This document shows, in pieces, positions 25,788-43,298 of a DNA stretch of 64,000 bases. The DNA is from an uncultured virus (IMG/VR IMGVR_UViG_3300025789_000001) (lineage: Duplodnaviria; Heunggongvirae; Uroviricota; Caudoviricetes). Made by a program: the position numbers and the translations under genes. The DNA lies in the IMG/VR virus record IMGVR_UViG_3300025789_000001. One strand, given 5' to 3'. The notes under the pieces were generated by a model. That model ran no database searches and was not told the DNA's origin. It saw nothing but the letters and a program-made list of their open reading frames with translations. Numbering within the stretch: position 1 is the stretch's first letter; each line of letters opens with the position of its first letter.

Positions 25788-25816
25788 TTGACATGGGTTA
25801 GTATATCAGCCAAACT
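25788..25816 (+). promoter_or_regulatory. Sigma70-like promoter for the recombination/accessory operon
   Basis: TTGACA-17 nt-CAAACT upstream of ATG 25846. Confidence 0.55.
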
Positions 25817-25829
25817 ACAGTCTGATTTA

Positions 25830-25838
25830 CTGCTAGGA
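25830..25838 (+). promoter_or_regulatory. CTGCTAGGA box overlapping SD
   Basis: Exact motif 7 nt before ATG 25846. Confidence 0.7.
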
Positions 25839-25845
25839 AAACAAA

Positions 25846-26067
25846 ATGCACATACCTTATACAACCATTTCGGGTTTGAAGATTGGTTCTCGTTACCAGG
25901 AGAATGGTATCACATCCCCAATCACAGACCCCGATATGTTATTGATTCAAGAGGCTTTACTGGCCACACCAGACTACATTCGTAGCAAGAAGATGTACGA
26001 TAGAAGTATTGTAGTAAGCATGGCTACAGGCATATTTGTAGCCTTTTATTTTTTATTATTCCGATAG
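25846..26067 (+). CDS. Hypothetical protein with C-terminal TM helix
   Basis: PYTT.SGLKIGSRY motif; hydrophobic C-terminus. Confidence 0.65.
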   Translation: MHIPYTTISGLKIGSRYQENGITSPITDPDMLLIQEALLATPDYIRSKKMYDRSIVVSMATGIFVAFYFLLFR

Positions 26068-26075
26068 GGGGATTT

Positions 26076-26237
26076 ATGGAAGACGATGTATTTACACCAA
26101 TCCAAAACGAGATTCTAAGGGCTGTGTTTCGGTCTATGGATCAAGAACTTGGCATCCGTCCTTTGACTGAAGAACAGCTCAAAGCCTTCAACATCAAACT
26201 GGATGCTAAAGAACGTGAAATTAACCAACAAGTTTAA
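26076..26237 (+). CDS. Hypothetical protein, 53 aa (not in ORF track)
   Basis: SD GGGGA, ATG 26076, TAA 26235-26237. Confidence 0.55.
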   Translation: MEDDVFTPIQNEILRAVFRSMDQELGIRPLTEEQLKAFNIKLDAKEREINQQV

Positions 26238-27084
26238 TATTCCTCAGACAATCATTAATGTCTTGGAGCGCCCTCATTACAACAAGGGCAAGGCTCATCT
26301 GTCAGTTACCCAGCTGATCAATAGCCCAAAGATCGTTAGCTTGACCAAGAAATACGATGAAGAGATTGAGCAAGATGCTTCTTCAATGATCTGGGCTTTG
26401 TTTGGTTCTGCTATGCACAATGTAGTCGAGCATGGCAAAGGAGAGCACGACATTGTTGAAGAACGCTTACACGCTGAGCTCGATGGCTGGAACATTAGTG
26501 GGGCTATTGACTTACAAATCCCCAATCCAAACGGCATGACAATCAAAGACTACAAAGTAACCAGTGTCTGGTCTGTCATGAATGAGAAGATTGATTGGGA
26601 ATACCAGTTAAATATTTACGCATGGCTGGTCGAGCACGTCAAAAAGGTTCCCGTAACTGATTTAGGTATTGTTGCATTTCTACGCAATTGGTCAGAGAAG
26701 GAGTCTGAGAAAGAGGGTTACCCACAGGCTCCAATCGTAGAGTTACCCATCACTTTATGGTCGATACAAGAGAGAGAGGATTTCATAAAAGCCCGCATCT
26801 CAGCACATTCTGAATGTGACTTCGCCTTGGAAACTGCTGGATCCCTACCCAATTGTACTCCAGAGGAAATGTGGGAAAAGCCTGCTGTTTGGGCCATTAA
26901 GAAGGTTGGCGGTAAGAGAGCTCACTCGTTATATGACACCCCTGAGAAGGCCTTATCAGCATTGGCTGATCTAGGGGAAAACTATGACATTGAGGAGCGT
27001 AAGGGAGAACGTACTCGTTGTGAGAGTTACTGTCTCGTTAATAAGTGGTGTAAACAGTATCAAGACTATAAGGAGCAGCAATGA
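26203..27084 (+). CDS. PD-(D/E)XK exonuclease (Cas4/RecB-like); likely start GTG 26215
   Basis: LSVTQL, GSAMH, ISGAIDL...IKDYK, YQLNIY, C-terminal RCESYC...C. Confidence 0.8.
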   Translation: MLKNVKLTNKFNIPQTIINVLERPHYNKGKAHLSVTQLINSPKIVSLTKKYDEEIEQDASSMIWALFGSAMHNVVEHGKGEHDIVEERLHAELDGWNISGAIDLQIPNPNGMTIKDYKVTSVWSVMNEKIDWEYQLNIYAWLVEHVKKVPVTDLGIVAFLRNWSEKESEKEGYPQAPIVELPITLWSIQEREDFIKARISAHSECDFALETAGSLPNCTPEEMWEKPAVWAIKKVGGKRAHSLYDTPEKALSALADLGENYDIEERKGERTRCESYCLVNKWCKQYQDYKEQQ

Positions 27085-27293
27085 TCGCATCAGAAATCGC
27101 AAGAGAATTAGAGCGCATAGTAGCACCAGCAACTCAAGCATTAAAAGTTCAGGAAGACCAAATTGAGGGTTTATTGGTAGCACAATACAACTTCACAATT
27201 ACTATTTCTAAGCTGGAAGCAGAGATTGCTGATTTACGCCAGAAGAATGATTCTTTATGGAAAGAACTTAATTGGAAGAAAGAAACAGCATGA
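27081..27293 (+). CDS. Hypothetical coiled-coil protein
   Basis: SD AAGGAG, ATGA coupling. Confidence 0.6.
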   Translation: MIASEIARELERIVAPATQALKVQEDQIEGLLVAQYNFTITISKLEAEIADLRQKNDSLWKELNWKKETA

Positions 27294-27967
27294 AAACGTA
27301 TGCAGAATTAAGAAAGATCAATGTCAATGAACATACAGAAAAGAAAGGTAACCTTACCTATTTATCGTGGGCTTGGGCTGTTGACAAGCTATTGGAGAAT
27401 GACCCAACAGCAACCTGGATATTTGGAACTCCGATGGGTTATGCAGACACCGTAATGGTCTGCTGTAAAGTCACCGCCTTTGGCAAGACTATGGAGATGC
27501 AATTGCCTGTTATGGATAACCGTAACAACGCCATTAAGAATCCAGATGCCCGTAGGATTTCAGATGCTCAGATGCGCTGCTTAACAAAGTGTATTGCCTG
27601 CTTCGGGATTGCATTGTATTTGTATGCTGGTGAAGATTTGCCCCAAGAGGACGAAGAGCCTGTAAAGGCCACTCCATCCCCAAAGCCAGTCGCTAAGCCA
27701 GCTGAGAAGATTGCTGGTCATCGTGGCGAGTTTCAGATCGTCATTGACCCTCTACCAGCTGGAGACAATACAAACTGGCTAAAACTGGTCAAAGAATCAT
27801 CCCATATGTTGCTAGACCTATGTGCTAGTGATGCCGATGTTATGACAATATTTAAGAAGAACAAGGTTCTATTTGATACTGTCAAAGCAGCTGATCCTCT
27901 TTTCTTTAAGGAAATGATGATCAAATTTACTGAAACCAAAGCTAAATTTACTAAGGAAGAAAAATGA
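27290..27967 (+). CDS. Sak3-like (DUF1071) single-strand annealing recombinase
   Basis: EKKGNLTYLSWAWA, LPVMDNRNNAI, QMRCLTKCIA.FGI.LYLYAGEDLP. Confidence 0.85.
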   Translation: MKTYAELRKINVNEHTEKKGNLTYLSWAWAVDKLLENDPTATWIFGTPMGYADTVMVCCKVTAFGKTMEMQLPVMDNRNNAIKNPDARRISDAQMRCLTKCIACFGIALYLYAGEDLPQEDEEPVKATPSPKPVAKPAEKIAGHRGEFQIVIDPLPAGDNTNWLKLVKESSHMLLDLCASDADVMTIFKKNKVLFDTVKAADPLFFKEMMIKFTETKAKFTKEEK

Positions 27968-28221
27968 GCTACGAACAAAAGCCCAATACTGGGGCGCTAT
28001 TCCCAAACCAAAAGAAGTCAGAAAATCACCCTGATAAACGGGGAGATTTATTCTTAGACAAGACTTTCTTAATTGACCAGATGGATAAATCCAAAGGAGC
28101 ATTGGTTAAGATTTCTATTGCTGGCTGGGAGAATACTTCCAAGAATGGCATGAATTATCTATCACTCAAAGCATCTGAGCCATACGAAGCACCAGCCACT
28201 ACTGGCAATCCTTGGGAGTAA
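27964..28221 (+). CDS. Putative ssDNA-binding protein (DUF736-like)
   Basis: GALF.N.KK.ENHPD..G, IAGW, YLSLK; follows the recombinase. Confidence 0.6.
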   Translation: MSYEQKPNTGALFPNQKKSENHPDKRGDLFLDKTFLIDQMDKSKGALVKISIAGWENTSKNGMNYLSLKASEPYEAPATTGNPWE

Positions 28222-28223
28222 TC

Positions 28224-28556
28224 ATGAAACTATTAAAGCGTGGCAGACCTAGTAAAAAGTTTAGCCCTGAACTGATGCAACAAGCAGCTCAGAATGTCAT
28301 GGATCGAGCCAAAGAAGAAGCTATCAGCGAACTAGAAAAGAAAGAGGCTCACGAGGCCAATATTCAACGATTGATTGCTGAAAGAGCTACTGTTCACTGG
28401 GAAGAAGTGGCTCAAAAGCAAGAAGTTGAGCTCGGTGTATTACGCATGGAAAACGATGAATTAGCCCGTATCTGTATGAATCGTTACGAAGAAATTGAGC
28501 GTTGGAAGTTTGTCATCAAATATTTGGAGAAGCGGATTGAAGACCTTGCAGTTTGA
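28224..28556 (+). CDS. Hypothetical protein (KRGRPS motif, coiled coil)
   Basis: ORF in operon with SD GGAG. Confidence 0.55.
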   Translation: MKLLKRGRPSKKFSPELMQQAAQNVMDRAKEEAISELEKKEAHEANIQRLIAERATVHWEEVAQKQEVELGVLRMENDELARICMNRYEEIERWKFVIKYLEKRIEDLAV

Positions 28557-28956
28557 AGGCGTTAAGGTCGCTCTTAAACAAGACAAGACTGGCTATGTAC
28601 TAACCCTGTCTATTCACCCAGACGATGCCCCTGAGGACTTACTCAGGGCGTTTGTAGGGGCTAGATATCAGGTTGTCATGGTCAGGATTGGAGAGAACGA
28701 GCAACCTACGGATCAATCACAGTATGCAGGCGATAGGGCTATTCGTATTGCTGGCCTACTGTGCCGTGATCCTAAATTTTGGAAGTTTCTGCACTCTGAT
28801 GACAGGATCTTTGACGAAGACATGGAAGAGGCTACAGAATGGCTGAGAAGCTATCTTGATATCCCATCTAGATCGGATTTAAAGACCAATCAAAAGGCTC
28901 AGATACTATTGGATAAACTACATAAAGAATACACATCATGGATTCAAAAAAACTAA
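28495..28956 (+). CDS. Hypothetical phage protein (start probably TTG ~28537)
   Basis: FEGVKVALKQDKTGYVLTLSIHPD, AGLLCRDPKFWKFL. Confidence 0.65.
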   Translation: MSVGSLSSNIWRSGLKTLQFEGVKVALKQDKTGYVLTLSIHPDDAPEDLLRAFVGARYQVVMVRIGENEQPTDQSQYAGDRAIRIAGLLCRDPKFWKFLHSDDRIFDEDMEEATEWLRSYLDIPSRSDLKTNQKAQILLDKLHKEYTSWIQKN

Positions 28957-29222
28957 TACCGTATTCTGTCTATCTTCCTGAGGAGCATCATCTCAAACTC
29001 AAGGATTTTGCTAAAGATCGCAAAGCTTCTGAGTTGATACGCAACGCCATTGGTATGCTGGTAGATGGAACCGATGTCTACACTTCAGGATTTAATGCTG
29101 GAATCAAAGCGGCTGCAAAAGTTATTTATGACTGCGAAGAAGCCCAGATGATTGCCGTCAAAGGCCGTGATTTGGGAGCAGTGCTGTCCGACAAAATAAC
29201 CAATTTGGAGATTACCAAATGA
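28938..29222 (+). CDS. Putative ribbon-helix-helix DNA-binding protein
   Basis: YSVYLPEE....LK......ASELIRNAI pattern. Confidence 0.55.
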   Translation: MDSKKLIPYSVYLPEEHHLKLKDFAKDRKASELIRNAIGMLVDGTDVYTSGFNAGIKAAAKVIYDCEEAQMIAVKGRDLGAVLSDKITNLEITK

Positions 29223-29596
29223 TTGAAACTGGGGGAGTGCACAAGATTAAGAAGCAGGATTGGATTATTTTGCGTTTGCTATTCTTGACGCTGACTTTAG
29301 ATCCAACAATGGCAAAGGTAGAGGATGTTAAATTGACAATGGATTACTTGCGTAAACGCTATAAACATTGGGATCAGGATATTATTTTGCATTCATTCCC
29401 AGCCCTTAGTTATGAGCACGGGCAGCGGAAAACATTTATGGATAAATATAAAGATGTCCATTCTTTTAGAGCTTTTGCCAAAACTTTAGAGGTGGATTAC
29501 AACTACCCAGACGAAGAAGCCCGTGAGAACGCACAACGCAGAACTTTTGGCGTACAAGATTACACAATAAGACCAGGAAACCCAAATGGATACTAA
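29219..29596 (+). CDS. Hypothetical protein
   Basis: SD GGAG, ATGA coupling. Confidence 0.55.
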   Translation: MIETGGVHKIKKQDWIILRLLFLTLTLDPTMAKVEDVKLTMDYLRKRYKHWDQDIILHSFPALSYEHGQRKTFMDKYKDVHSFRAFAKTLEVDYNYPDEEARENAQRRTFGVQDYTIRPGNPNGY

Positions 29597-29816
29597 AGAA
29601 CAAGACCCATCAAGATTGATTGCATTAGAAATCTTTCAATTGCTGGCGCCTAAAGCAGATACCGATGTCAAAGTCATCATGGCTGCGGTTTCAATGGTGC
29701 TCTCTACCATAGCGGTAGAGACAGGCTTAGAGGAAGAGAAGGCTGTTTATGCGTTTACAAGGTCATATAGAAACGCTAAGAGCCGTTTAAAACACGTTAT
29801 GAAGCAGGTACACTAA
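29586..29816 (+). CDS. Hypothetical protein
   Basis: ORF tightly packed in operon. Confidence 0.55.
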   Translation: MDTKEQDPSRLIALEIFQLLAPKADTDVKVIMAAVSMVLSTIAVETGLEEEKAVYAFTRSYRNAKSRLKHVMKQVH

Positions 29817-30001
29817 TGAATGAACAAGATCTCAGGGACTGTTTTGCCATGTTTATATTAAATGGCCTGCTGTCCCGCCTGCCCTCTGAAGAAATAGATC
29901 CTGCCAATGTTTGGTATTTAGCAGATTCTATGGTGGAATCTAGAGATGTTAAGCCTGCTGGGTTGCCCCCCATCAAACGGAGAAGAAAGAGTGAAGCTTA
30001 A
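29816..30001 (+). CDS. Hypothetical phage protein
   Basis: DLRDCFAM...ADSM motif; TAATG coupling. Confidence 0.6.
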   Translation: MNEQDLRDCFAMFILNGLLSRLPSEEIDPANVWYLADSMVESRDVKPAGLPPIKRRRKSEA

Positions 30002-30146
30002 GTATTGTTCATCTTGTATGTTGTTTCAGCCAGAACAAAGTGGAAAAATAGTTCAAACTGCAAACAAAAAATTAAAACGCTTTAAATGTGGTGGTTGTTT
30101 AAAAAAAATTAGTGAACGTAAATTTCAAGGGAAAGGCACAAAATGA
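29991..30146 (+). CDS. Small zinc-finger-like protein
   Basis: CSSC...FKCGGC; GTG start. Confidence 0.5.
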   Translation: MKLKYCSSCMLFQPEQSGKIVQTANKKLKRFKCGGCLKKISERKFQGKGTK

Positions 30147-30295
30147 CTACTTTTACTACTGAAGACCGATTAGAAGCTGAAAAGGACTGGAAACAAGAAT
30201 ATGATAAGCTCCAAGAAGATTACAACAATCTCAAGGATTTATTTGATAAAGCATTAAATTCTTGGGCTAAAGACATGGAGAGGCAGAAAAAATGA
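30143..30295 (+). CDS. Hypothetical protein, 50 aa (not in ORF track)
   Basis: MTTFTTEDR...; ATGA overlaps at both ends. Confidence 0.55.
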   Translation: MTTFTTEDRLEAEKDWKQEYDKLQEDYNNLKDLFDKALNSWAKDMERQKK

Positions 30296-30522
30296 CTTGG
30301 AACCTACGGCTTGTAGACATGAAAGATCCCGAATACCCAGATCAGAATTATGTAGAAATTAGGGAAGTGTTTTATGACACTATGGGCAAGCCGATGGGTC
30401 ATACCACTGCCACATTTGGCGGTGAGAACAAGCAAGACATTAAACAATATTTAGAATGGGCTTTAGAAGCATTAGAAAAGCCTGTTTTATTCTTTAGGGA
30501 AAAGACATGGACATCAAAGTAA
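30292..30522 (+). CDS. Hypothetical phage protein
   Basis: MTWNLRLV...EIREVFYD..GKP...ALEKPVL. Confidence 0.65.
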   Translation: MTWNLRLVDMKDPEYPDQNYVEIREVFYDTMGKPMGHTTATFGGENKQDIKQYLEWALEALEKPVLFFREKTWTSK

Positions 30523-30731
30523 AAATCGAAAAGGAAAATAAAGATGGCTCGGCTGATGCTAAAGTTAGTTTCGATAAAGAAGGACTTGAAGTCCTCGTTC
30601 AATGGGGACTTGTCGCTATGCTTACCGAAGCAGTTGGTCGATATGCCACTAGACCCGATGAAAATACGCCAGTTATTACTGGACGGCCTAAAAAGAAGAA
30701 GAAAGAATTAGATATTGATGGGAGATGTTGA
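30507..30731 (+). CDS. Hypothetical protein
   Basis: ENKDGSAD motif; packed in operon. Confidence 0.55.
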   Translation: MDIKVKIEKENKDGSADAKVSFDKEGLEVLVQWGLVAMLTEAVGRYATRPDENTPVITGRPKKKKKELDIDGRC

Positions 30732-30910
30732 TGAGAGATGGTGGAAAAGGTGATGCACAACGCCCATTAGGCATTCCTATGGAAGAGTTTGATGCTAAAT
30801 GGGATGAGATATTTAACAAAGACAAAGAAAAAGATAGTAATTTAAGCATTACTGTCGATGTTGAACCAGGAGAGGCCACAGTCACAGTTAATAAGACTTG
30901 GAGCTTCTAA
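30725..30910 (+). CDS. Hypothetical phage protein
   Basis: DGGKGD..RP....F...WD.IF motif. Confidence 0.6.
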   Translation: MLMRDGGKGDAQRPLGIPMEEFDAKWDEIFNKDKEKDSNLSITVDVEPGEATVTVNKTWSF

Positions 30911-31398
30911 TGAACGCAAATGAACTAGCTGATGACATGGAAAACAGTAGATTCAATGACATCAATTACAACAAAAAGAAAGCTGCAGACTTTGTACGCC
31001 AGCAACAAGAAAAGCTGACCAAGTACGAACTGCGCCATGTTGCACAGCGTGACAGAATTGCAATACTAGAAATGCAACATAAACAGCAACAAGCTGAAAT
31101 AGAGGCGTTGAAACTGCAATTACATACCACTTTAACTAATCGTGACTTACGAACCTATGACGGCAAACTAAATATGAACAATGAACCAGTAGCGTGGTTT
31201 GAGCAAGACCCTGATATGAAGTCAGTTTGGTATCAGGCTGACCAAGACAGCCCTAATGCTATTCCACTCTACACCCATCCAGCAAAGACACTAACAGATG
31301 AGGAAATAATTGAAATTTGGAGTGGCATGGAAACTGACACAGGCGAACAAAACATTATTTTTGCTAGAGCAATACTAAGAAAGGCACAAGAGAAATGA
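30910..31398 (+). CDS. Modular hypothetical protein (internal MNNEPVAW, LTDEEI, FARAILRKAQEK blocks)
   Basis: TAATG coupling; shares DNA blocks with 31607..31924. Confidence 0.65.
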   Translation: MNANELADDMENSRFNDINYNKKKAADFVRQQQEKLTKYELRHVAQRDRIAILEMQHKQQQAEIEALKLQLHTTLTNRDLRTYDGKLNMNNEPVAWFEQDPDMKSVWYQADQDSPNAIPLYTHPAKTLTDEEIIEIWSGMETDTGEQNIIFARAILRKAQEK

Positions 31399-31610
31399 AT
31401 GGTAACGATTTAACAATCAACCGAGATATGAGCCAATACACAATTTTGGCATCTCCTGAACCGATTGGATATTGGCAGATTACACCTGAGGTAAAAGGTG
31501 GTTGGTCTACAAGGTTTGCTGTGTATGCGCCACTAAATCCAACGCATATTAAAAACACAGAAGAATTGCTTGGTTGGAAATGGATTGATGGAAAGGCACA
31601 AGAGAGATGA
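31395..31610 (+). CDS. Hypothetical protein
   Basis: ATGA-coupled at both ends; ends GKAQER. Confidence 0.6.
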   Translation: MNGNDLTINRDMSQYTILASPEPIGYWQITPEVKGGWSTRFAVYAPLNPTHIKNTEELLGWKWIDGKAQER

Positions 31611-31924
31611 ACAATGAACCAGTAGCGTGGATGGATAAAGAAAGCAATATCACCATGATTGGTGGTATTTACCCAAAAAAGCTAGAGCAATATTTAAGCG
31701 TATTAGAATCTAGGATTATTGCTTTGGAATCCCATCCAGCAAAGACACTAACAGATGACCCATTGGTTAATTTCAAACCTGTATGGCAAGAAAAGTCTGA
31801 ACTGACACTAACAGATGAGGAAATACGGAAGGTAGCAGATGAAGTGTTTAAAGACTACAAGAATTGGCATCACTACCAAATAGATTTTGCTAGAGCAATA
31901 CTAAGAAAGGCACAAGAGAAATGA
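31607..31924 (+). CDS. Modular hypothetical protein (MNNEPVAW...LTDEEI...FARAILRKAQEK)
   Basis: Shares identical DNA blocks with 30910..31398. Confidence 0.65.
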   Translation: MNNEPVAWMDKESNITMIGGIYPKKLEQYLSVLESRIIALESHPAKTLTDDPLVNFKPVWQEKSELTLTDEEIRKVADEVFKDYKNWHHYQIDFARAILRKAQEK

Positions 31925-32064
31925 GCTCTTGGCTAATTATCGTTACAGGTCTTATTTATCTTTATATTGGCTGTGAACAAGGGTTTAAAGGCAATATTGC
32001 TTTGTGTATTACTTATGTTAGTTATGCTGCTGCTAACGTAGGTCTTTACTTAATGGCCAAATGA
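31921..32064 (+). CDS. Small membrane protein, 47 aa (not in ORF track)
   Basis: MSSWLIIVTGLIYLYIG...YAAANVGLYLMAK; ATGA-coupled. Confidence 0.6.
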   Translation: MSSWLIIVTGLIYLYIGCEQGFKGNIALCITYVSYAAANVGLYLMAK

Positions 32065-34673: not shown

Positions 34674-34678
34674 ATGCT

Positions 34679-34687
34679 CCCTAGCAA
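34679..34687 (-). promoter_or_regulatory. Variant box (TTGCTAGGG) overlapping SD of the phosphoesterase gene
   Basis: 5 nt before ATG 34673; both changes remain G-U-compatible with the sRNA seed. Confidence 0.5.
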
Positions 34688-34759
34688 GATGTTGATGGGT
34701 ACGGCAATAGTAGGTTAGTAGTATTTCACTTTTGTTAAACCCATGAATAATAACAGATT

Positions 34760-35050
34760 ATGTATAGAAACAGGAAGCTTTTAGATGTCTTACGAAAATC
34801 CCCATGCCAACACTGTGGTAGCTCTGACGGCACAGTCGTGGCTGCCCACGCCAACTTGCTCAGACTTGGAAAAGGAAAAGGAATTAAATGTCCCGACTTT
34901 TACACAGCTGCCCTATGCTTTCGCTGTCACACAGAGCTGGATCAAGGCAAGAACCTATCCAAGATACAGCGGGAAGAAATGTGGATAGAAGCCTATCTCA
35001 AGACCCAAGCATGGCTGTGGGAAAATGGCCACATAAATACTAGCAGTTGA
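34760..35050 (+). CDS. HNH/Zn-finger nuclease-like protein (DUF1364/Ref-like)
   Basis: PCQHCG...VAAHAN...GKG.GIK...LCFRCH. Confidence 0.7.
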   Translation: MYRNRKLLDVLRKSPCQHCGSSDGTVVAAHANLLRLGKGKGIKCPDFYTAALCFRCHTELDQGKNLSKIQREEMWIEAYLKTQAWLWENGHINTSS

Positions 35051-35076
35051 CACATTTTCCATATATGTGCTATATT
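35047..35076 (+). promoter_or_regulatory. Sigma70-like promoter of the sRNA
   Basis: TTGACA-18 nt-TATATT with extended -10 TGn. Confidence 0.7.
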
Positions 35077-35082
35077 TAGTAT

Positions 35083-35212
35083 TGTCTACCCTGTAGACCG
35101 CACCCGTCACTCATATCCTAGCAGAATGATACTTGTGCAACGCAAGCCCCAGCGGATCCACGATCCCCTTAGAGCCCTTAGATTTCCCCTGATCTAAGGG
35201 CTCTTCCTTTTG
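35083..35212 (+). ncRNA. Putative trans-acting sRNA (~125-130 nt) carrying the anti-CTGCTAGGA seed
   Basis: Lies between a promoter and a terminator; no convincing ORF; hairpins GTCTAC/GTAGAC, GCAC/GTGC, GGATC/GATCC; TCCTAGCAG at 35116-35124. Confidence 0.65.
35171..35212 (+). terminator. Intrinsic terminator
   Basis: 13-bp perfect stem AGAGCCCTTAGAT/ATCTAAGGGCTCT followed by TCCTTTTG. Confidence 0.7.
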
Positions 35213-35214
35213 TA

Positions 35215-35243
35215 CTTGCAGAAAATATTTTTTACGCTATACT
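35215..35243 (+). promoter_or_regulatory. Sigma70-like promoter of the long structured RNA
   Basis: (C)TTGCA...TATACT at 35238-35243; spacer contains the palindrome AAAATATTTT. Confidence 0.6.
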
Positions 35244-35247
35244 AAAA

Positions 35248-35550
35248 GGGCTAGGATATAAGACGGGGACAAACGATTAAATTCGTCTGTCTGCCTCTTT
35301 ATATCTTTGCCTAGCCCGTACTCATTGGTGTTGCTACGGTAAAGGCTGTAAATACCCCTAGAAGAAACTATGGCAAAATGCCCCCAGCTTACCGTGATTG
35401 CTTGGTAAGATATGGGAACCGTCCTGTATATGGATAGACCGATGAGTGATAATGACAGACCTAGGCACGACAAAGACATCGAAGCAATTATGTAAGAAAG
35501 AACTCAGCAAGACTGAAAGCACCTATTCCTCATAGTAGGGATAGGTGTAT
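35248..35550 (+). ncRNA. Putative ~300-nt structured RNA / leader (or origin region)
   Basis: Helices 35248-55/35310-17, 35320-29/35438-47, 35336-48/35385-95, 35519-30/35537-48, several with G-U pairs. Confidence 0.5.
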
Positions 35551-35576
35551 CCTGAATCTAGCAATCCTGAACGAAT

Positions 35577-36005
35577 ATGAAGACAGCCAAATTTATACAA
35601 GAAATACATGATCTCTGTGATCCTCCAGCGAGAGAAGCAATCATTAAGTATGTTAAAGATGAATGGAATCTACTAGCAGAAGATTATGAGAAATACAAGG
35701 TAGATCTCTTAATTAAAAATCAATCAGGTAAATCAATTGGTTATGCTGAGTTGGAGCTGCGCAACTGGGAGTCGTGCCCGTATCCGACTATTCATATTCC
35801 ACAGCGTAAGAAAAAGTTATTTGATAACGATATGCCTACTGTCTACTTCGTAGTGAACCGCCCACTGACGATGGCATACTACATCAATACAAACAAGATC
35901 TTAGAACAACCGCTTAGAGAAATTGCCAATAAACGATTAACAGATGGTGAGTATTTTTACGATGTGCCAAAAGAAATGTTCAGCGTAATCCACTTGAAGT
36001 CTTAA
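35577..36005 (+). CDS. Putative PD-(D/E)XK-fold nuclease-like protein
   Basis: YKVDL...YAELELRNW...IHIPQRK. Confidence 0.55.
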   Translation: MKTAKFIQEIHDLCDPPAREAIIKYVKDEWNLLAEDYEKYKVDLLIKNQSGKSIGYAELELRNWESCPYPTIHIPQRKKKLFDNDMPTVYFVVNRPLTMAYYINTNKILEQPLREIANKRLTDGEYFYDVPKEMFSVIHLKS

Positions 36006-36022
36006 TCTCTTTTTGATAAAAT
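35994..36022 (+). promoter_or_regulatory. Sigma70-like promoter of the replication genes
   Basis: TTGAAG-17 nt-TAAAAT with extended TGn. Confidence 0.6.
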
Positions 36023-36033
36023 AATAGCTCCAA

Positions 36034-36042
36034 CTGCTAGGA
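36034..36042 (+). promoter_or_regulatory. CTGCTAGGA box overlapping SD
   Basis: AACTGCTAGGAGA, 7 nt before ATG 36050. Confidence 0.75.
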
Positions 36043-36049
36043 GATTTAG

Positions 36050-37818: not shown

Positions 37819-38620
37819 TTTCGCAAGAGAACATGGCTTGATTATGAATAACAATCTTGTCATGGACAGATGGGTAGCCACCCCAACAGAAGATCATCCA
37901 AGATCCACAAACGGTAGATATAAATTCTTAGGCAATGTCGGCTGGGCTATCAACTGGGCAACAATGGATAAACCCGCCACCTGGTTTGCTGAAGGTGTCA
38001 GCAAGACCGAAATCAAAAAACAAATGTCTTCGTCAAACGATTCAAGGAAAAAAGAGGCACAGGCTGCAGCAGAAAAAGCACAGTGGATTTTGTCTCAATG
38101 CAGTTTGGAATCGCATCCATACCTTGAACGCAAGGGATTTAAAAACGAACAGGGAAATGTCTTCGTCAAAGGGCTCGACAAACTGTTAGTTATTCCCATG
38201 CGGATACAGGGCTCTGTGGTGGGATGCCAGCTCATCGACCACGAGGGGAACAAAAAGTTCTTGCATGGTCAGACGAGCAAGGGGGCAACTTTTACGATTG
38301 GGACACGAGGCACTGCAATATTCTGCGAAGGGTATGCCACTGGCCTCAGTGTCAGGGATATCATGACCAAAATGAATCTCCCTTATACGATCCACATCTG
38401 CTTCTCCGCAAACAACATGGAGCTCATAGCAAGGAACATCGGGAAGGGGCTGATTATCGCTGATAACGATAGCAGTGGTGTTGGAGAGATGGTGGCCAAA
38501 AAGACACAAAAGCCGTATTGGATCTCCCCAGCAACTGGGGAGGATTTTAATGACTACCATATGAGAGTCGGCAATTTCAAGGCTTCTCAGGATTTAAAGA
38601 GGTTGCTACTTTCCTTATAA
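37802..38620 (+). CDS. TOPRIM-domain DNA primase
   Basis: HPYLERKG, CEGYATG, IIADND, DFND. Confidence 0.85.
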   Translation: MQEFVNFAREHGLIMNNNLVMDRWVATPTEDHPRSTNGRYKFLGNVGWAINWATMDKPATWFAEGVSKTEIKKQMSSSNDSRKKEAQAAAEKAQWILSQCSLESHPYLERKGFKNEQGNVFVKGLDKLLVIPMRIQGSVVGCQLIDHEGNKKFLHGQTSKGATFTIGTRGTAIFCEGYATGLSVRDIMTKMNLPYTIHICFSANNMELIARNIGKGLIIADNDSSGVGEMVAKKTQKPYWISPATGEDFNDYHMRVGNFKASQDLKRLLLSL

Positions 38621-38927
38621 ACCTAGCTTCAATCTGCCTGATCCTTTCACGATTAAGAACAAAAGTATTACCCACTGATTGTAGCGTATGACCTTCTGCC
38701 CTCATCTTCAGGATATTCCAGTATTTTTCCCGTAGGGTTTTATTATTGGATTTAAAGAGTATGTCAAACTTCTCACGACTGGGAAAGTCCACCAGCTTGT
38801 AAGGGGCATCGCCCCCTACAAACACTGGCACTTTACCCTTGCACTTGCTTAGGTTCATCCTGTCCTTTCTCAATGATGACATAGCCTGTTTCATCAATGT
38901 AGTATTGCTGGCCTGATTCTTTGGCAC
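38577..38927 (-). CDS. Sigma70 region-4-like HTH protein
   Basis: TLQSVGNTFVLNRERIRQIEAR. Confidence 0.7.
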   Translation of the reverse strand: MPKNQASNTTLMKQAMSSLRKDRMNLSKCKGKVPVFVGGDAPYKLVDFPSREKFDILFKSNNKTLREKYWNILKMRAEGHTLQSVGNTFVLNRERIRQIEARFIRKVATSLNPEKP

Positions 38928-39290
38928 TAATCAATCTTTTCTGTTGCCATTTAGAATTGGCTTCCATCCATTGCTGGGCATCTTTATCGGCTTGATTCAT
39001 TGTTAATCTCCTTTATTTTTTCCAATGCTTCTTTCTTTGTTACAAAAACCAAGTTATCGCCAACATGATCTACATATTCATCATAATTATTTTTATCCTG
39101 AATAATCCAATAATTTTCTTGCAATTCTACTGGTCTCCAATTCATGTTGATACCTCCATCAAAAATTTATGAACAGATGCTTCAAACTCAGAAAATTCTT
39201 TCTGATCAACTTGGCAATAATCTTTTGGATTCTCGATATCAATTACCATTAAAGAATCCCCGCAAAGAACATATTCGTTGTCATCGTCCA

Positions 39291-39518
39291 TTACTCTAAC
39301 CATTTTGACCATCCTTCAGAAAAATAAATTTCACCTTTAAATTCTGCTGGGATCAAGTAACCGCTATATCCATGTTTGACCATGAAATCATCGGCATCTG
39401 TTTCGTCCATCAGCAACTGGCATTTAATTTCGTGGATGACTGCACAGGGGAATGTATCTCTTCCTTTGCAAAAGTCCCCAAACTCGATATCACCAAACAA
39501 TACTAAATTTTTAGGCAT
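39291..39518 (-). CDS. Hypothetical early protein
   Basis: ATGA/TAATG-coupled small ORF. Confidence 0.55.
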   Translation of the reverse strand: MPKNLVLFGDIEFGDFCKGRDTFPCAVIHEIKCQLLMDETDADDFMVKHGYSGYLIPAEFKGEIYFSEGWSKWLE

Positions 39519-39738
39519 GATCTAACTCCATTATTCTAAATTCATCCAATTCATACAAAGAATCAATATTGCCAGCGTTGTATTCCATGAGCTCATCCTC
39601 AAGAAATTCATTGAGGGCATCTAAGGCTTCTTTGTATGTTCTATAAATGGACGGGATCATTACCCCGTCCTCATTCTCTTCACTCCAGCAATTTATCCAT
39701 CCATCGCATAGCGTGTAATGTTGAACTTCAAACATCAA
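39511..39738 (-). CDS. Hypothetical early protein (acidic)
   Basis: FEVQHYTLCDGWINCWS; SD AGGAG. Confidence 0.65.
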   Translation of the reverse strand: MMFEVQHYTLCDGWINCWSEENEDGVMIPSIYRTYKEALDALNEFLEDELMEYNAGNIDSLYELDEFRIMELDHA

Positions 39739-39908
39739 TCTATCTCCTGATTGTCAAAAGCCCCATGATCCCCTTGCACTATTGCCAATGCTTCTGCAAT
39801 ATTGCCGATAGCTTCATCCAAATCAACCAGTGGATATTCGTCTTGCATCTCATCATTTAAAAACTTGTAAGTGTCTACAAGCAATTTTTCTACTCTTGCA
39901 ATATTCAT
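39735..39908 (-). CDS. Hypothetical early protein, 57 aa (not in ORF track)
   Basis: MNIARVEKLLVDTYKFL...; overlaps neighbours at both ends. Confidence 0.5.
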   Translation of the reverse strand: MNIARVEKLLVDTYKFLNDEMQDEYPLVDLDEAIGNIAEALAIVQGDHGAFDNQEID

Positions 39909-40090
39909 TCGATTTCCTCATCGTCATCAGTTTGTTCAACATCGTAAACAACATGGTCATATTCACCGACACAGTGAAAGTCGCACTCAGGTATGGCTTT
40001 ACCCTTTTCCCAAGCATCGGCTTCACTGTCGGCTTCTATCACCTTCTCATACATCACATTGGTCTTTGCCCTGATAATCCATTTAGGCAT
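39905..40090 (-). CDS. Hypothetical early protein
   Basis: MPKWIIRAK...IEADSEADAWEK; SD GGAGGAG. Confidence 0.55.
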   Translation of the reverse strand: MPKWIIRAKTNVMYEKVIEADSEADAWEKGKAIPECDFHCVGEYDHVVYDVEQTDDDEEIE

Positions 40091-40283
40091 GACTAAACTC
40101 CTCCAATGTAAGTGGCTCAACTTCAACAAACTCATCACCACTGTCCAAAATATCTTTCGATATATGGCTCTCTATCTTTTTTGCATATGCTTCTGCTTTT
40201 GATTCAGAATCAAATGCTATAAGGTTTGTATAGCCGTTATATGCACCATACGATTTCACGATATATATTGTTTTCATTGTCAA
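40083..40283 (-). CDS. Hypothetical early protein
   Basis: IYIVK...AFDSESKAEAY motif. Confidence 0.55.
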   Translation of the reverse strand: MTMKTIYIVKSYGAYNGYTNLIAFDSESKAEAYAKKIESHISKDILDSGDEFVEVEPLTLEEFSHA

Positions 40284-40287
40284 ATCC

Positions 40288-40734
40288 TTACCAGCTTGAC
40301 TGGTAGTAAAAGTCCCAGTTAACGGCAGACGGGTTTGTCAAAATCTCCGACAATCTGTCCCTAGTCTCAGTAATGCTCTGCCAGTAGTATTCATCCTTTT
40401 CAGTGCTGCCGAAAAAAAATCCCGATACTGGCTTAAGAATATCTTCATCACGATTTACCAATGCTTCGTTGCATAGTGCAACCAGCTCGTCCAACTGGGC
40501 AGAATCGACCCAGTATTCCCCGCAGTCATCAAGTCCCTCCTGAACATTATCGACAAACCAATTATGGATAGCGTTGCACTTTCTCCAATACATCACATCA
40601 AAGGATACCGACTTGGCATCGTAGGCCGTAACCCCCAACACCTTCGCCACATCCTTGCGTAAATGTTGCTCTTCTTCTTTGTGATTCCACAAATATTGCT
40701 TTGCGGTCAAATACATATCTAAACCCATGATCAC
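40288..40734 (-). CDS. Conserved phage early protein
   Basis: MGLDMYL...YWRKCNAIHNWFV...GFFFG...YYQSSW. Confidence 0.75.
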   Translation of the reverse strand: MIMGLDMYLTAKQYLWNHKEEEQHLRKDVAKVLGVTAYDAKSVSFDVMYWRKCNAIHNWFVDNVQEGLDDCGEYWVDSAQLDELVALCNEALVNRDEDILKPVSGFFFGSTEKDEYYWQSITETRDRLSEILTNPSAVNWDFYYQSSW

Positions 40735-40910
40735 TCCTCCTCAGTCATGTAAAACTGCCCAACACGATTACCATTGGTATCCCTGATAGTCCCCGATTTT
40801 TGCTGAGAATCAATCATATTTGAGACCAGCTCTAAATTGGCAACCAATTCGTCATACAGTGATTCTTCATACACTGCGTTATCAGTGCGTATTTCCAGTT
40901 TGAACATCAT
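40731..40910 (-). CDS. Hypothetical early protein, 59 aa, immediately downstream of hammerhead 1 (not in ORF track)
   Basis: MMFKLEIRTDNAVYEE...IRDTNGNRVG; SD AGGAG. Confidence 0.7.
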   Translation of the reverse strand: MMFKLEIRTDNAVYEESLYDELVANLELVSNMIDSQQKSGTIRDTNGNRVGQFYMTEEE

Positions 40911-40917
40911 TTCAATC

Positions 40918-40926
40918 TCCTAGCAG
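40918..40926 (-). promoter_or_regulatory. CTGCTAGGA box overlapping SD
   Basis: TTAACTGCTAGGAGA, 7 nt before ATG 40910. Confidence 0.75.
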
Positions 40927-40929
40927 TTA

Positions 40930-40980
40930 ATCAAAGACTGGATCACTCCAGTTTCGTCCTTACAGACTCATCAGTTTGAT
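40930..40980 (-). ncRNA. Type I hammerhead ribozyme (HH1)
   Basis: AUCAAA CUGAUGA GUCU-GUAA-GGAC GAAA CUGGA-GUGA-UCCAG UC^UUUGAU; full core, three stems; cut between 40936 and 40935. Confidence 0.93.
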
Positions 40981-41333
40981 AGGCACTTCTCACGCCATTT
41001 ACGGGCATTGTCATTCAATGCTGGGTAAAGCTCATCCAGCTTATGTATCAGCTTCTTTGGTGCGTTGAAGTAGTAAGGCATCATATCTTCTGTCATTTCT
41101 TTCATGACCCATTCTTTTGCAGAACACTCAAGCAATATGACCATGCCAAACCCAGTCTTAGTGCCATCGGCTTTAACGACATTCAGAATGCCGTATGCTT
41201 CCCGTCCCTTGATGCTGATATCAGTCAACTCAAAAGACGGGTTAGTGCCAATTTCACCAACTTGTTTAAATTCGTCTGCCAACCAGCGTTTTTTATCGCC
41301 ATGATAAGGCGGAGTCATTCCAGTCCATCCCAT
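40971..41333 (-). CDS. Hypothetical early protein (DUF6927-like)
   Basis: MGWT...KEMTEDMMPYYFNAP...A.KWREKC; its stop codon lies in the hammerhead core. Confidence 0.65.
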   Translation of the reverse strand: MGWTGMTPPYHGDKKRWLADEFKQVGEIGTNPSFELTDISIKGREAYGILNVVKADGTKTGFGMVILLECSAKEWVMKEMTEDMMPYYFNAPKKLIHKLDELYPALNDNARKWREKCLSN

Positions 41334-41557
41334 GTTATTGCTCCTCAGTAATGTTAAACAATGCTCTCATATGATTCTCAAGGTAATGTAATTTACTTAT
41401 CTGTTCGTCAATAAAATCACGCATATTGTCAAACTCCTGAAAACCAGCTACTGGCATCCCTTTCAAATAATTGGTTTTCCCTAAGTCCATTAGATCAAAA
41501 TACATTTCTTGAACAGTCGTATATAGGTTTGATTCAACTCCCATGTTATTGCTCCTC
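41328..41557 (-). repeat. 19-nt direct repeat flanking one small gene
   Basis: TCCCATGTTATTGCTCCTC at 41328-41346 and 41539-41557. Confidence 0.85.
41335..41544 (-). CDS. Hypothetical early protein
   Basis: SD GAGGAG; MGVESNLYTT...EEQ. Confidence 0.6.
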   Translation of the reverse strand: MGVESNLYTTVQEMYFDLMDLGKTNYLKGMPVAGFQEFDNMRDFIDEQISKLHYLENHMRALFNITEEQ

Positions 41558-41713
41558 GATTGATTCATCTACATCAGATTGTGAATAGCCCGACAAAATC
41601 TCAGGCCGATATTTGCTCAAGACTGCATCCACGCATTTATCGCAGACCCTTGCCAACGGGATACCTTGAGCATCGTATTCCCACCAGCTATCACCACTAT
41701 GTTCACAGATCAT
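41546..41713 (-). CDS. Small Cys/His-containing early protein
   Basis: MICEH...WWEYDAQGIPLARVCDKC. Confidence 0.6.
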   Translation of the reverse strand: MICEHSGDSWWEYDAQGIPLARVCDKCVDAVLSKYRPEILSGYSQSDVDESIEEQ

Positions 41714-41847
41714 ATGACTCTCCCCCATTTGAGAATTGCAGAAACTACTAACCATATGGCATAAAAGCCCGCCAATATCAGTCCGAAGGACAACAGCTCA
41801 GACCATACAACAGTCATCAACTGATACAGCTCTTTCAAAGTATCCAT
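41710..41847 (-). CDS. Small membrane protein, 45 aa (not in ORF track)
   Basis: MDTLKELYQLMTVVWSELLSFGLILAGFYAIWLVVSAILKWGRVI; SD GAGGAG. Confidence 0.55.
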   Translation of the reverse strand: MDTLKELYQLMTVVWSELLSFGLILAGFYAIWLVVSAILKWGRVI

Positions 41848-42221
41848 TATTCAAACTCCTCAGAATTAACATAAACCCCATTCTTACGAAGTAGGGCAAT
41901 CGCATGGTCATTCAATGACATGACCCCATCATATTCGACCAGACTCCGTTTGCCATCCCGATCAATGGAAAACCACAGACCAATATGCTCAAACAAGTCC
42001 AGCTCAGGAATATCCCATTCAATGAACCCAGTGCAGTCTTTGTGGTAGTAGAGCTCTAAGGTAGACTCATGAGTCCCCAAATCTCTCTGCCCCCAGCTCC
42101 CCTCCAGCATCAGAGGAGAGCTCACTGTCATGCTATCAATGAGCTCTGCCACGATCAATACTCCGAAGTCAACATAAAGACATTGTCGGCCAAGAAGAAG
42201 GTATAAATGCCCGAAGGGCAA
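41847..42221 (-). CDS. Hypothetical early protein (true start probably near 42152)
   Basis: IEWDIP...HIGLWF...L.EYDGVMSL. Confidence 0.6.
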   Translation of the reverse strand: MPFGHLYLLLGRQCLYVDFGVLIVAELIDSMTVSSPLMLEGSWGQRDLGTHESTLELYYHKDCTGFIEWDIPELDLFEHIGLWFSIDRDGKRSLVEYDGVMSLNDHAIALLRKNGVYVNSEEFE

Positions 42222-42514
42222 TCAGTCATAGCGATCTTCTTAATCTTCAAAGTATTCAAATCCCCATCATCAAAAGCAATAACGGCTTTACCATCAGCAA
42301 CTTCCATGTTGATAGACATAAAGGGATTCTTCTTATGGAGCTCATAGCCCTCAGTAGCCACGATATCCAAGAACCAGTAAGCCCCAGCAGTATCAGCAAA
42401 GTATTGAACCCCATCGGTATGAACCAGCTTCGGTGCAAACATAGGCTGAGTCCTCCAATACTGGGTAGTGCCAAAGAACTGGGTTAAATCGATTGTGTTG
42501 GTTTGTGTTTCCAA
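42155..42514 (-). CDS. DUF6876-like early protein
   Basis: LTQF.GT..YW...TDGVQYFA..AGAYWFLD...DDGD...TD.P...MLTSEY. Confidence 0.7.
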   Translation of the reverse strand: METQTNTIDLTQFFGTTQYWRTQPMFAPKLVHTDGVQYFADTAGAYWFLDIVATEGYELHKKNPFMSINMEVADGKAVIAFDDGDLNTLKIKKIAMTDCPSGIYTFFLADNVFMLTSEY

Positions 42515-42522
42515 TTTATTTC

Positions 42523-42531
42523 TCCTAGCAG
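42523..42531 (-). promoter_or_regulatory. CTGCTAGGA box overlapping SD
   Basis: TTAACTGCTAGGAGA, 8 nt before TTG 42514. Confidence 0.75.
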
Positions 42532-42543
42532 TTAATGATTACC

Positions 42544-42589
42544 GAATGGCAATCCCGATACCCCGAAGGGCATCAGGATTACAGCACTC
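42544..42589 (-). other. Long intergenic RNA hairpin (possible processing site)
   Basis: GAGUG-CU-GUAAUCCUGAUGCCC-UUCG-GGGUAUCGGGAUUGC-CAUUC: 20 bp with G-U pairs and a C(UUCG)G loop. Confidence 0.7.
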
Positions 42590-42719
42590 AAGACCGATTC
42601 AAGAACTCAGCTACCTTCAAGGCTTCGTCCATATACGCAAACAGTGCCATGATCTCTCCATTCTCATCCTCAATAGCGTATGGGAACTTAGGATCACTAC
42701 AGGCAATTACTCCAAACAT
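42588..42719 (-). CDS. Hypothetical early protein, 43 aa (not in ORF track)
   Basis: SD AAGGAG; MFGVIACSDPKFPYAIEDENGE...AEFLNRS. Confidence 0.6.
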   Translation of the reverse strand: MFGVIACSDPKFPYAIEDENGEIMALFAYMDEALKVAEFLNRS

Positions 42720-42730
42720 AATCAATCTCC

Positions 42731-42925
42731 TTAGAAAGTAAAACCAGTAAAAACAACACGATTACCCCTGATGAACTTCCCATGATTCATATCGTCAAAC
42801 TTATGAACCCAGTATTGACGGGAAGAACGGCAGTAGTAGTCGCAGACCCAAACAGGGGAAGTCTCAGTGCCTTTTAGCTTAAAGAACTCTCCCTTAGCTA
42901 TCTTCTTGAGTAGTGATGGTTGCAT
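42731..42925 (-). CDS. Hypothetical early protein, downstream of hammerhead 2
   Basis: LKK..KGEFFKL...VWV..YY.RS..Y...FDD.N...VFTGFTF. Confidence 0.7.
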   Translation of the reverse strand: MQPSLLKKIAKGEFFKLKGTETSPVWVCDYYCRSSRQYWVHKFDDMNHGKFIRGNRVVFTGFTF

Positions 42926-42932
42926 CGTTATC

Positions 42933-42941
42933 TCCTAGCAG
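42933..42941 (-). promoter_or_regulatory. CTGCTAGGA box overlapping SD
   Basis: CACTGCTAGGAGA, 7 nt before ATG 42925. Confidence 0.75.
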
Positions 42942-42945
42942 TGTT

Positions 42946-42993
42946 GTCAAAGACCCCGAAGGGTTTCGCCTATTGAAGGCTCATCAGTTTGAC
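42946..42993 (-). ncRNA. Type I hammerhead ribozyme (HH2)
   Basis: GUCAAA CUGAUGA GCCU-UCAAU-AGGC GAAA CCC-UUCG-GGG UC^UUUGAC; cut between 42952 and 42951. Confidence 0.93.
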
Positions 42994-42997
42994 TGGG

Positions 42998-43246
42998 TTA
43001 GAACTGGCAGTTATCAGACATCTCCTGACGAAGATCAATCCATTCCTGAATGGCTTTAAGCGTCTTAGCCATATCGAACTGGGATTCTGATAGATACTCA
43101 AGAATATCCCCATCCGACCATGCTTCTACTATCGCATCCCAACCTTCGTTGTATAAAGCTCCAGCGTATGCTCTTACAACTTGAATCATCTTCTCCTCAT
43201 CTATCTGCTTATCCCATATGGCGATTGTGTCTTGTAGTGTCTGCAT
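42998..43246 (-). CDS. First gene of the early operon, acidic hypothetical protein
   Basis: VRAYA...Y..GWD.IVEAWSD..I; SD AGGAG within the variant box CTACTAGGA. Confidence 0.65.
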   Translation of the reverse strand: MQTLQDTIAIWDKQIDEEKMIQVVRAYAGALYNEGWDAIVEAWSDGDILEYLSESQFDMAKTLKAIQEWIDLRQEMSDNCQF

Positions 43247-43298
43247 ATCTGCTCCTAGTAGGTGGTTTAAAAATCATTCATCTAGTGAATGAGATTAA

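Follow-up and report, generated by a model that had tools for sequence, protein, structure and literature searches.

Why should a nine-nucleotide sequence that precedes start codons along the non-structural genes of a phage be found once more, inverted, inside a stand-alone unit with its own promoter and terminator? The question is raised by a stretch of 64,000 nucleotides (nt), hereafter called the window, from the uncultured virus IMGVR_UViG_3300025789_000001 (Caudoviricetes), of which the 25.8-43 kb part is the early/middle (non-structural) part of a tailed phage. A first-pass annotation had read this part as an RNA circuit, in which self-cleaving hammerheads would cut the early transcript into units with a standard leader box, and a small RNA (sRNA) carrying the complement of that box would silence or tune all of them by covering the Shine-Dalgarno (SD) sequence. 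We compared the window with 31 related loci picked by a helicase anchor, blind to RNA features, giving 32 loci with the window (labels such as L004 or L007 stand for related viral loci or contigs). Our analysis points to a partner of the sRNA that the annotation had not noticed, the 5' end of a neighbouring folded leader that we call t2: base pairing between the two RNAs is supported by covariation, and we take it as the core function of the system, the 5' end of t2 being the only sRNA partner for which covariation was found.

With a predicted promoter and terminator of its own, a conserved structure and no reading frame or length conserved on either strand in relatives, the sRNA unit stands up as a conserved, structured, non-coding gene. 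The stand-alone promoter-terminator unit at 35083-35212 that had been described from the window alone is, thus, kept in relatives, with the exact complement of the box (the seed, UCCUAGCAG) at 35116-35124. Homologues sit at the same place upstream of the helicase (49 unique sequences by nhmmer, 51 by a pattern plus terminator search), and a covariance model adds divergent members, one of them in a complete record of 67 kb. The sequence CCUAGCAG is present in 48 of the 49 nhmmer homologues, with variable flanks; a scan anchored outside the seed gave 68 unique contexts, 35 of them sRNA-like, and all 35 carry CCUAGCAG. The conserved parts, with compensatory changes, are the promoter (TTGACA...TGnTAtATT before TAGT), a 5' hairpin, a GGAUC/GAUCC hairpin and the terminator; such changes affect 8 of 15 predicted pairs overall, terminator stem included. 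Minimum free energy folds of the 51 sRNAs share no single consistent stem around the seed, of which at least six of eight positions are unpaired in 33. Among the helicase-anchored loci, 28 of 32 (window included) have the sRNA, and three of the four without it are truncated on the upstream side of the helicase. Rfam searches up to an E-value of 10 returned only chance-level rows for the sRNA/t2 region and for a double hairpin described below (EGFOA, E 1.4; LPR17, E 2.4; freshwater-2, E 8.5), none of them being C4. An opposite-strand open reading frame (ORF) at 34955-35110 was rejected as a gene, as it overlaps the HNH gene.

Directly behind the sRNA terminator lies P2, a second promoter that we infer from its conservation (TTGCAA-N16/17-TAAnCT in relatives), the consensus promoter scan having missed it. 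It precedes t2, the leader of the replication operon, in which a 142-aa ORF (35577), a box-bearing 89-aa ORF (36050), the helicase (36319) and the primase (37802) follow one another. No conserved reading frame was found in t2 on either strand in the relatives compared; nucleotide identity is 80-100% in type-A relatives, with 7 and 24 gapped positions, and an opposite-strand ORF at 35237-35479 was rejected as a gene, its frame being broken by gaps in relatives. Positions 35250-35262 of t2 and 35110-35122 of the sRNA form a 13-nt inverted repeat with 92% complementarity, and the predicted duplex between the two RNAs of the window reaches -27.4 kcal/mol. In relatives, the counterparts of t2 begin with (nn)GCUAGG, followed by the complement of the variable extension of their own sRNA. 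When 30 unique extensions were tested with the invariant seed excluded, the mean was -12.8 kcal/mol for cognate and -5.5 kcal/mol for non-cognate pairs, a cognate mean that 10,000 permutations never reached, and the cognate t2 was the best partner of 21 of the 30 extensions. Complementarity to the 5' end of t2 is, thus, kept through changes on both sides, down to a single compensatory change (A with U in L227 where L031 has U with A).

The comparison of the window with L004 is particularly telling in this respect. The two are identical in their flanks, in both promoters, in the terminator and over 266 nt of the t2 body, and wholly different only in the sRNA loop around the seed and in the first ~70-120 nt of t2; the cognate duplex of L004 is predicted at -36.1 kcal/mol versus -20.4 kcal/mol for the cross pair. 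As read from these alignments, the sRNA loop and the 5' segment of t2 have been swapped together between otherwise identical phages. The 5' arm of t2 pairs in a long hairpin with a 3' arm whose last bases are CCUAGC, so that the sRNA mimics t2's own 3' arm, and L004 has the same 5' hairpin architecture with a different sequence. Downstream of it, the body of t2 exists in relatives as at least four unrelated types at this position. Four of the eight loci scanned (L152, L221, L007 and L227) match the Rfam family RF02932 (Betaproteobacteria-1) there at 90-100 bits (cut-off 49.4); the t2 of the window itself does not match RF02932 and is a different, uncatalogued body type, and neither types C and D nor the type-A t2 of L004 matched Rfam.

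The most likely working of this locus would be as follows. P2 would start a folded non-coding t2 of ~330 nt, whose first ~20 nt could pair either with the seed plus extension of the sRNA or with the downstream sRNA-like arm within t2; the sRNA would bind the nascent 5' arm in competition with the 3' arm, and its binding would reset the fold of the leader and set the output of the replication operon through a long, phage-specific contact. Antisense control of t2, as we see it, would probably proceed by competition with its 3' arm during leader synthesis. One could also see t2 as a decoy (sponge) that titrates the sRNA and sets when the box genes escape or fall under repression, the sRNA not controlling t2 at all. 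The strongest predicted duplex is indeed that with t2, the leaders of the box genes reaching only -16 to -20 kcal/mol; the sRNA and t2 genes are adjacent, each with a predicted promoter, and phage-encoded sponge RNAs such as AgvB appear in the accessible text of a 2025 review of phage sRNAs (PMC12197685). The target is, however, buried in a stable hairpin with the 3' arm of t2, which suits a co-transcriptional switch better, and a long, conserved body of at least four types, Betaproteobacteria-1 included, argues for a function beyond that of a 20-nt bait; we consider a pure decoy improbable. The features on which the competition reading and the rest of the analysis are built are collected in Table 1.

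Table 1. Features of the RNA system along the window (promoters, RNA ends and cuts are predicted)
Feature	Position	Strand	Basis
sRNA promoter: TTGACA, 18-nt spacer, TGcTATATT (extended -10)	35047..35076	+	best promoter-like site of the 25000-44500 scan (11/12 plus TG)
sRNA gene, ~130 nt; start placed from the -10 element, end from the terminator	35083..35212	+	fold z -5.9
Variable 5' extension of the seed	35102..35115	+	relatives
Seed UCCUAGCAG, exact complement of the box	35116..35124	+	exact-copy search
Intrinsic terminator of the sRNA	35171..35212	+	14-pair stem (35171-35204) plus T run; best terminator-like site of the 25000-44500 scan
P2, putative second promoter: TTGCAG, 16-nt spacer, TATACT	35216..35243	+	conservation
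t2, long folded non-coding leader of the replication operon	35248..35576	+	fold z -4.7
t2 5' hairpin: 5' arm targeted by the sRNA, 3' arm (...GCCUAGCCC) similar to the region of the sRNA seed	35248..35317	+	folding
t2 5' end, GCUAGGAUAUAAGACGGGG, complementary to sRNA seed plus extension	35250..35268	+	inverted repeat, duplex prediction, covariation
Promoter TTGACA-17-CAAACT, short leader and box CUGCUAGGA (25830-25838) before ATG 25846	25788..25838	+	sequence
Promoter-like site, extended -10 (TGaTAAAAT), and box AACUGCUAGGAG (36032-36043) before ATG 36050	35994..36043	+	sequence, promoter scan
Variant box CUUGCUAGGGAGC before ATG 34673	34676..34689	-	third-best predicted sRNA duplex among 88 start regions
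Box AACUGCUAGGAG before ATG 40910 (59-aa gene)	40917..40928	-	exact-copy search
Hammerhead 1, type I; predicted cut between 40936/40935	40930..40980	-	core and stems, Rfam models
Box AACUGCUAGGAG before TTG 42514 (DUF6876 gene)	42522..42533	-	exact-copy search
Conserved double hairpin, 13-bp and 7-bp stems, in the hammerhead's place before the box	42537..42589	-	folding, relatives
Box CUGCUAGGAG before ATG 42925 (64-aa gene)	42932..42941	-	exact-copy search
Hammerhead 2, type I; predicted cut between 42952/42951	42946..42993	-	core and stems, Rfam models
Variant box CCUACUAGGAG before ATG 43246 (opening gene of the leftward early operon); A-C mismatch against the seed	43252..43262	-	

Some further observations concern the surroundings of the sRNA and t2. 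The small HNH endonuclease gene (34760-35050, +) ends exactly at the -35 element of the sRNA promoter, and the same is seen in the distant relative L015 (8300-8584). Two more plus-strand copies of the seed with one change (TACTAGCAG) lie near the sRNA, at 35038-35046 and 35671-35679; the latter, within the 142-aa ORF, is complementary at 12 of 13 positions to the box at 36034-36046. Within the RusA gene, GCUAGGAUGUGAG (25620-25632, -) is the complement of 13 nt of the window's sRNA, extension included; this may be a chance match. Downstream of t2, L230, L200, L198 and L208 have AT-rich short direct repeats (TTACT/GTTACT) resembling origin iterons.

The other half of the question concerns the box itself, 12 nt long (AACUGCUAGGAG) with the SD included. 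The exact 9-mer CTGCTAGGA occurs six times in the window, all in its non-structural 25.8-43 kb part, when the mean of 100 shuffles is 0.54 (largest 3; none reaches 6); with one mismatch allowed, the 20 matches found are not significant compared with the 14.1 expected (8 of 100 shuffles reach 20). Five of the six copies are on the sense strand of a gene, 7-8 nt upstream of its start codon (25830+, 36034+, 40918-, 42523- and 42933-, for the start codons 25846, 36050, 40910, 42514 and 42925, respectively), and the sixth, the sole inverted copy, is the one inside the sRNA unit. The positions that the first-pass annotation had given to the box were borne out in every case: behind the promoters at 25788 and 35994, behind the hairpin of the 42544 region, over the SD of the leaders that the two hammerheads would release and, as variants, near 34679 and 43253. 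Among the helicase loci, which were not chosen for the box, CTGCT precedes AGGAG in 36 of 230 unique AGGAG-plus-start contexts versus ~0.2 expected, most commonly in the form [C/T]AACTGCT; a second form, CACCTACT-AGGAG, is found in 7 of the 230. The promoter-plus-box arrangement of 25788 is kept in L007, L008, L009, L014, L015 and L031, and TGaTA(A/T)ACT plus box is conserved in relatives before the gene preceding the helicase. By these counts, early/middle leaders carry the box as a discrete motif. On the sRNA strand, 3.7-6.3 kb downstream of the sRNA, L221, L152, L158, L198, L202, L208, L209 and L216 also share a conserved CTGCTAGGTAA(A)TC... that lacks a start codon.

Upstream of boxes, one of three recurrent classes of element is found: a hammerhead, a double hairpin that is conserved, or a conserved promoter (either TTGACA-17-CAAACT or with the extended -10 TGaTAAACT) from which the RNA is predicted to start just a few bases ahead of the box. 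The box is always 4-13 nt away, counted from the predicted hammerhead cut, the predicted start at the promoter or the double hairpin. Two complete hammerheads cutting 25 and 26 nt before start codons had been announced, and both were recovered at their place, with a complete core (CUGAUGAG...CGAAAC...GUC) and three paired stems that covary in relatives; from the predicted cut after GUC there are 25 nt to ATG 40910 (U40935 to 40911) and 26 nt to ATG 42925 (U42951 to 42926). Stem I has only 6 bp, and no tertiary contact between stems I and II was identified. A core-plus-stems scan of the 31 helicase loci and the window gave 12 unique hammerheads (none in the reversed-sequence control), 11 of which are followed by a box 8-10 nt past the predicted cut: hammerhead and box are coupled in relatives. 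Over the whole collection, the pattern CGAAAC..GTC..box was found at 119 places (92 unique contexts), 72 of which have the CUGANGA half upstream. In these 72 sequences, anchored on core motifs only, stem I is paired at 6/6 positions in 70 (20 distinct sequences; shifted control never above 4/6), stem II at 4/4 in 59 (19 distinct) and stem III at 4/4 in 70 (19 distinct). Such full pairing with 19-20 distinct sequences per stem indicates genuine hammerheads; they show covariation in all three stems and the open stem I of type I. Some hammerheads upstream of boxes in L008, L009, L011 and L015 have a ~60-nt insertion in stem III with a repeated GAG(A/U)CCGCAAA motif; in L027, a hammerhead before CTGCTAGGG is permuted (GAAAC, stem, GUC, stem I loop, CUGAUGAG), and L027 and L030 also have copies whose cores are altered (UUGAUAAG, CCGAUGAG), perhaps with loss of activity.

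The double hairpin is represented by 31 unique variants, with compensatory changes in 6 of 16 predicted pairs; its forms (at loci such as L018, L016, L007 and L221) have stems of 9-13 bp and 7 bp, an invariant GGGAUU and a conserved GAGUG upstream. The DUF6876 gene is preceded by the double hairpin in the window, L004 and L010, and by a hammerhead instead in L009 and L011. The double hairpin is a candidate processing site or a candidate new self-cleaving RNA. Ribozyme-cut leaders of a standard form, as initially proposed, hold as far as the coupling of hammerhead and box goes, but hammerheads are only one of three interchangeable devices, and nothing ties them to the sRNA directly.

A box placed in this way might also be read at the DNA or protein level, as an operator or promoter element, a boundary for module recombination, or a site for an RNA-binding protein or a nuclease, its copy in the sRNA being incidental or protective. 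The RegB-type nuclease of phage T4, for example, cuts GGAG in early SD sequences. Boxes do mark the junctions of exchangeable modules, with upstream genes and processing elements that vary between close relatives, genes for an exonuclease and a Sak-like annealing protein are present, and a conserved AA in the box that the sRNA does not explain suggests another reader. Nevertheless, boxes lie behind hammerhead cuts, inside transcripts, where a promoter is unneeded, and the inverted copy belongs to a conserved, presumably single-stranded part of a structured RNA, where the positions next to it covary with an RNA partner. The strict sense orientation of the box, its fixed distance to start codons and the location of the only inverted copy in the sRNA make an orientation-independent DNA operator unlikely, and we hold the whole group of DNA- and protein-level explanations to be very improbable.

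Does the sRNA, then, act on the box mRNAs as well? The complementarity of its invariant seed to the box, on which this proposal was first based, stands; covariation is found with t2 only. Targets were ranked over the 88 start regions of the window, a loop-tolerant duplex scan of the whole window being too noisy for ranking, and the five exact-box genes together with the variant before 34673 are within the seven best predicted duplexes. The last two bases of the seed (AG) are invariant although t2 often cannot pair with them, which fits additional targets containing CUG. The invariance of CCUAGCAG and these top ranks suggest that box mRNAs may be additional targets of the sRNA. Occlusion of the SD of box genes is plausible: the invariant seed alone (9-12 bp over the SD) could block ribosome binding on all box cistrons, with a coordinated down-tuning of early/middle genes as a result.

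The sRNA may also act only on t2, the box being a standardised strong ribosome-binding leader that spread by descent and module exchange, and which the seed would match because the start of t2 copies it. The restriction of covariation to the sRNA and t2 is what this explanation expects, and it accommodates the short sRNA-box match in the window (9 bp only), the AA of the box's AACUG, conserved and matched by only some sRNAs, and the occurrence of boxes at junctions between modules. It does not account easily for CCUAGCAG being invariant, terminal AG included, in 48 of 49 sRNAs when t2 often lacks the matching CU and other paired positions drift, nor for L015, which retains an sRNA without a complementary t2 start, or L022, in which sRNA and box are both absent. 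We consider an action restricted to t2 possible, if rather unlikely.

The model that we lean towards, by a small measure, is an RNA-level control made of four linked parts: the box, the 5'-end devices, the sRNA and t2. Each early/middle expression unit would have a box with its SD a few bases from its 5' end, this end or structure being set by a sigma-70-type promoter, a type I hammerhead (cut 8-13 nt before the box; two in the window) or a double hairpin (one in the window); the sRNA of ~130 nt, made from its own strong promoter and closed by its own terminator, would display the invariant CCUAGCAG to the boxes and, with its extension, to t2. What the sequences themselves show is the elements, their conservation, the covariation of sRNA with t2 and the coupling of hammerheads with boxes; that the two RNAs are made at all, their exact 5' ends, a repressive sign, the timing and any effect on box mRNAs are our deductions.

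One has to keep in mind that a number of points weigh against this model, beginning with the 9-bp match and the sRNA of L015 mentioned above. The AA that only some sRNAs match means that the box obeys yet another constraint, which the model does not explain. Since neither the seed nor the mRNA box varies, covariation offers no test of the regulon; in L017, a changed seed (CCUAGCAA) goes with unchanged boxes. As for t2, the extension of L026 mismatches its own t2, and the sRNA of the window pairs with the t2 of L004 (-27.1 kcal/mol) about as well as with its own, so that specificity is not absolute. With a near-consensus promoter, the sRNA would be made from phage entry on, which does not sit well with a plain late shut-off of the early genes. 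Both hammerheads of the window are below the curated cut-offs of Rfam (28.1 versus 34 bits, E 0.0033, for RF00163; 21.6 versus 52 bits, E 0.29, for RF02275), the whole window having no Rfam match at gathering level. Promoters, start sites and cleavage are predictions, and the loci are related phages, so that co-occurrence counts are not independent.

A still wider reading, which we give as tentative and as a whole somewhat unlikely, would have the entire early/middle programme run as a modular RNA system: every unit would have a ribozyme- or promoter-defined box, one master antisense RNA would read the box, and a swappable cassette (sRNA loop plus t2 5' hairpin) would tie this master RNA to its own replication leader, as in heteroimmunity; the double hairpin would be a further processing device, possibly of a new self-cleaving class, and Betaproteobacteria-1 a sensor or effector domain of the leader.

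The genome around this system has a G+C content of 42%. Its plus strand carries the structural and packaging genes at 43615-64000 and 1-25439 (terminase, portal, head proteins and a 3755-aa polyvalent protein), and the non-structural block at 25.4-43.6 kb encodes, besides the HNH endonuclease, helicase, primase, exonuclease and annealing protein already mentioned, RusA, a sigma-70 region 4-like protein and many small ORFs. In the 3755-aa protein of the virion region (14172-25439, +), helicase domains of the SNF2/Strawberry-notch type are accompanied by an LPD38 domain and a stretch resembling a methyltransferase. The leftward early operon ends with a gene (38577-38927, -) whose product of 116 aa has a sigma-70 region 4 domain and is a candidate late-transcription activator. 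Phage 023Pt_psg01 and the Pelagibacter phages HTVC027P and HTVC023P have large terminases with 55-59% identity to that of the window; when 34600-44000 was compared by megablast with the phage collection, no nucleotide match came up, and a tRNA search of the window found none. A scan of bacterial and archaeal genomes with the sRNA pattern gave 17 places, none significant by covariance model (best E 0.022), so that no host or prophage could be identified.

In its logic, the sRNA system resembles several known antisense controls, and by our comparison it is a member of none. In satellite phage P4, the CI RNA, processed from the same leader as its seqA/seqC targets, causes transcription termination and gives lysogenic immunity. 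As in our proposal, a small RNA controls the leader of a primase/helicase operon by pairing; the P4 RNA differs in being leader-derived and serving immunity, when the window has no integrase or repressor among the proteins scanned (48 + 26). In plasmid copy control (RNA I/RNA II of ColE1, CopA/CopT of R1, attenuation in pT181), the antisense RNA comes from the opposite strand and is fully complementary to its target. These systems share with our proposal the action on the 5' part of a nascent replication leader with alternative folds and a competing internal partner; here, in contrast, the sRNA and t2 are in tandem on the plus strand, with a complementarity of ~13-20 nt. A further parallel is the c4 RNA of phages P1 and P7, like the one proposed here a phage RNA acting in trans through short exposed segments on a nearby downstream target that includes a ribosome-binding site, with matched changes of RNA and target in related phages. 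The c4 RNA is, however, cut out of its target transcript and uses two loops, whereas the sRNA described here has a predicted promoter and terminator of its own, uses one seed plus an extension and has no match to the Rfam C4 family; it is aimed at the very 5' terminus of a long, folded replication leader, and its seed also matches a box on many genes. The c4 antisense RNA of the immI operon is credited to Citron and Schuster (1990) in the accessible parts of PMC8198154 and PMC12197685.

Clustered hammerheads flanking single genes or short blocks in phage operons were described by Perreault et al. (2011; PMC3088659), who proposed that they cut long transcripts into gene-length mRNAs, a haloviral example lying 13 nt before a start codon; in the accessible text of that paper, neither a constant leader box following the cut nor an sRNA matching such a box is described, and the word "Shine" does not occur. 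Neither "hammerhead" nor "ribozyme" occurs in the accessible text of the 2025 review (PMC12197685). Betaproteobacteria-1 (RF02932) originates from Weinberg et al. (2017; PMC5737381) and is listed by Rfam as an sRNA gene; in the relatives studied here, the motif is instead the middle of a longer leader preceded by the sRNA target. Our searches of open-access literature found no description of a ribozyme-cut leader box combined with a matching sRNA, as the first-pass annotation had supposed, and the evidence from comparison presents the system as a real, uncatalogued variant of phage antisense control.

If our reading is true, the phage would turn an sRNA on genes of its own, reaching both one dedicated target that covaries with it and a leader box found across the genome. 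The orphan motif Betaproteobacteria-1 also gains a first genomic context, within a leader of replication genes that the sRNA next to it would target. Synthetic biologists put ribozyme insulators and standard ribosome-binding sites before genes; the boxed leaders of these phages would be a natural counterpart of such designs.

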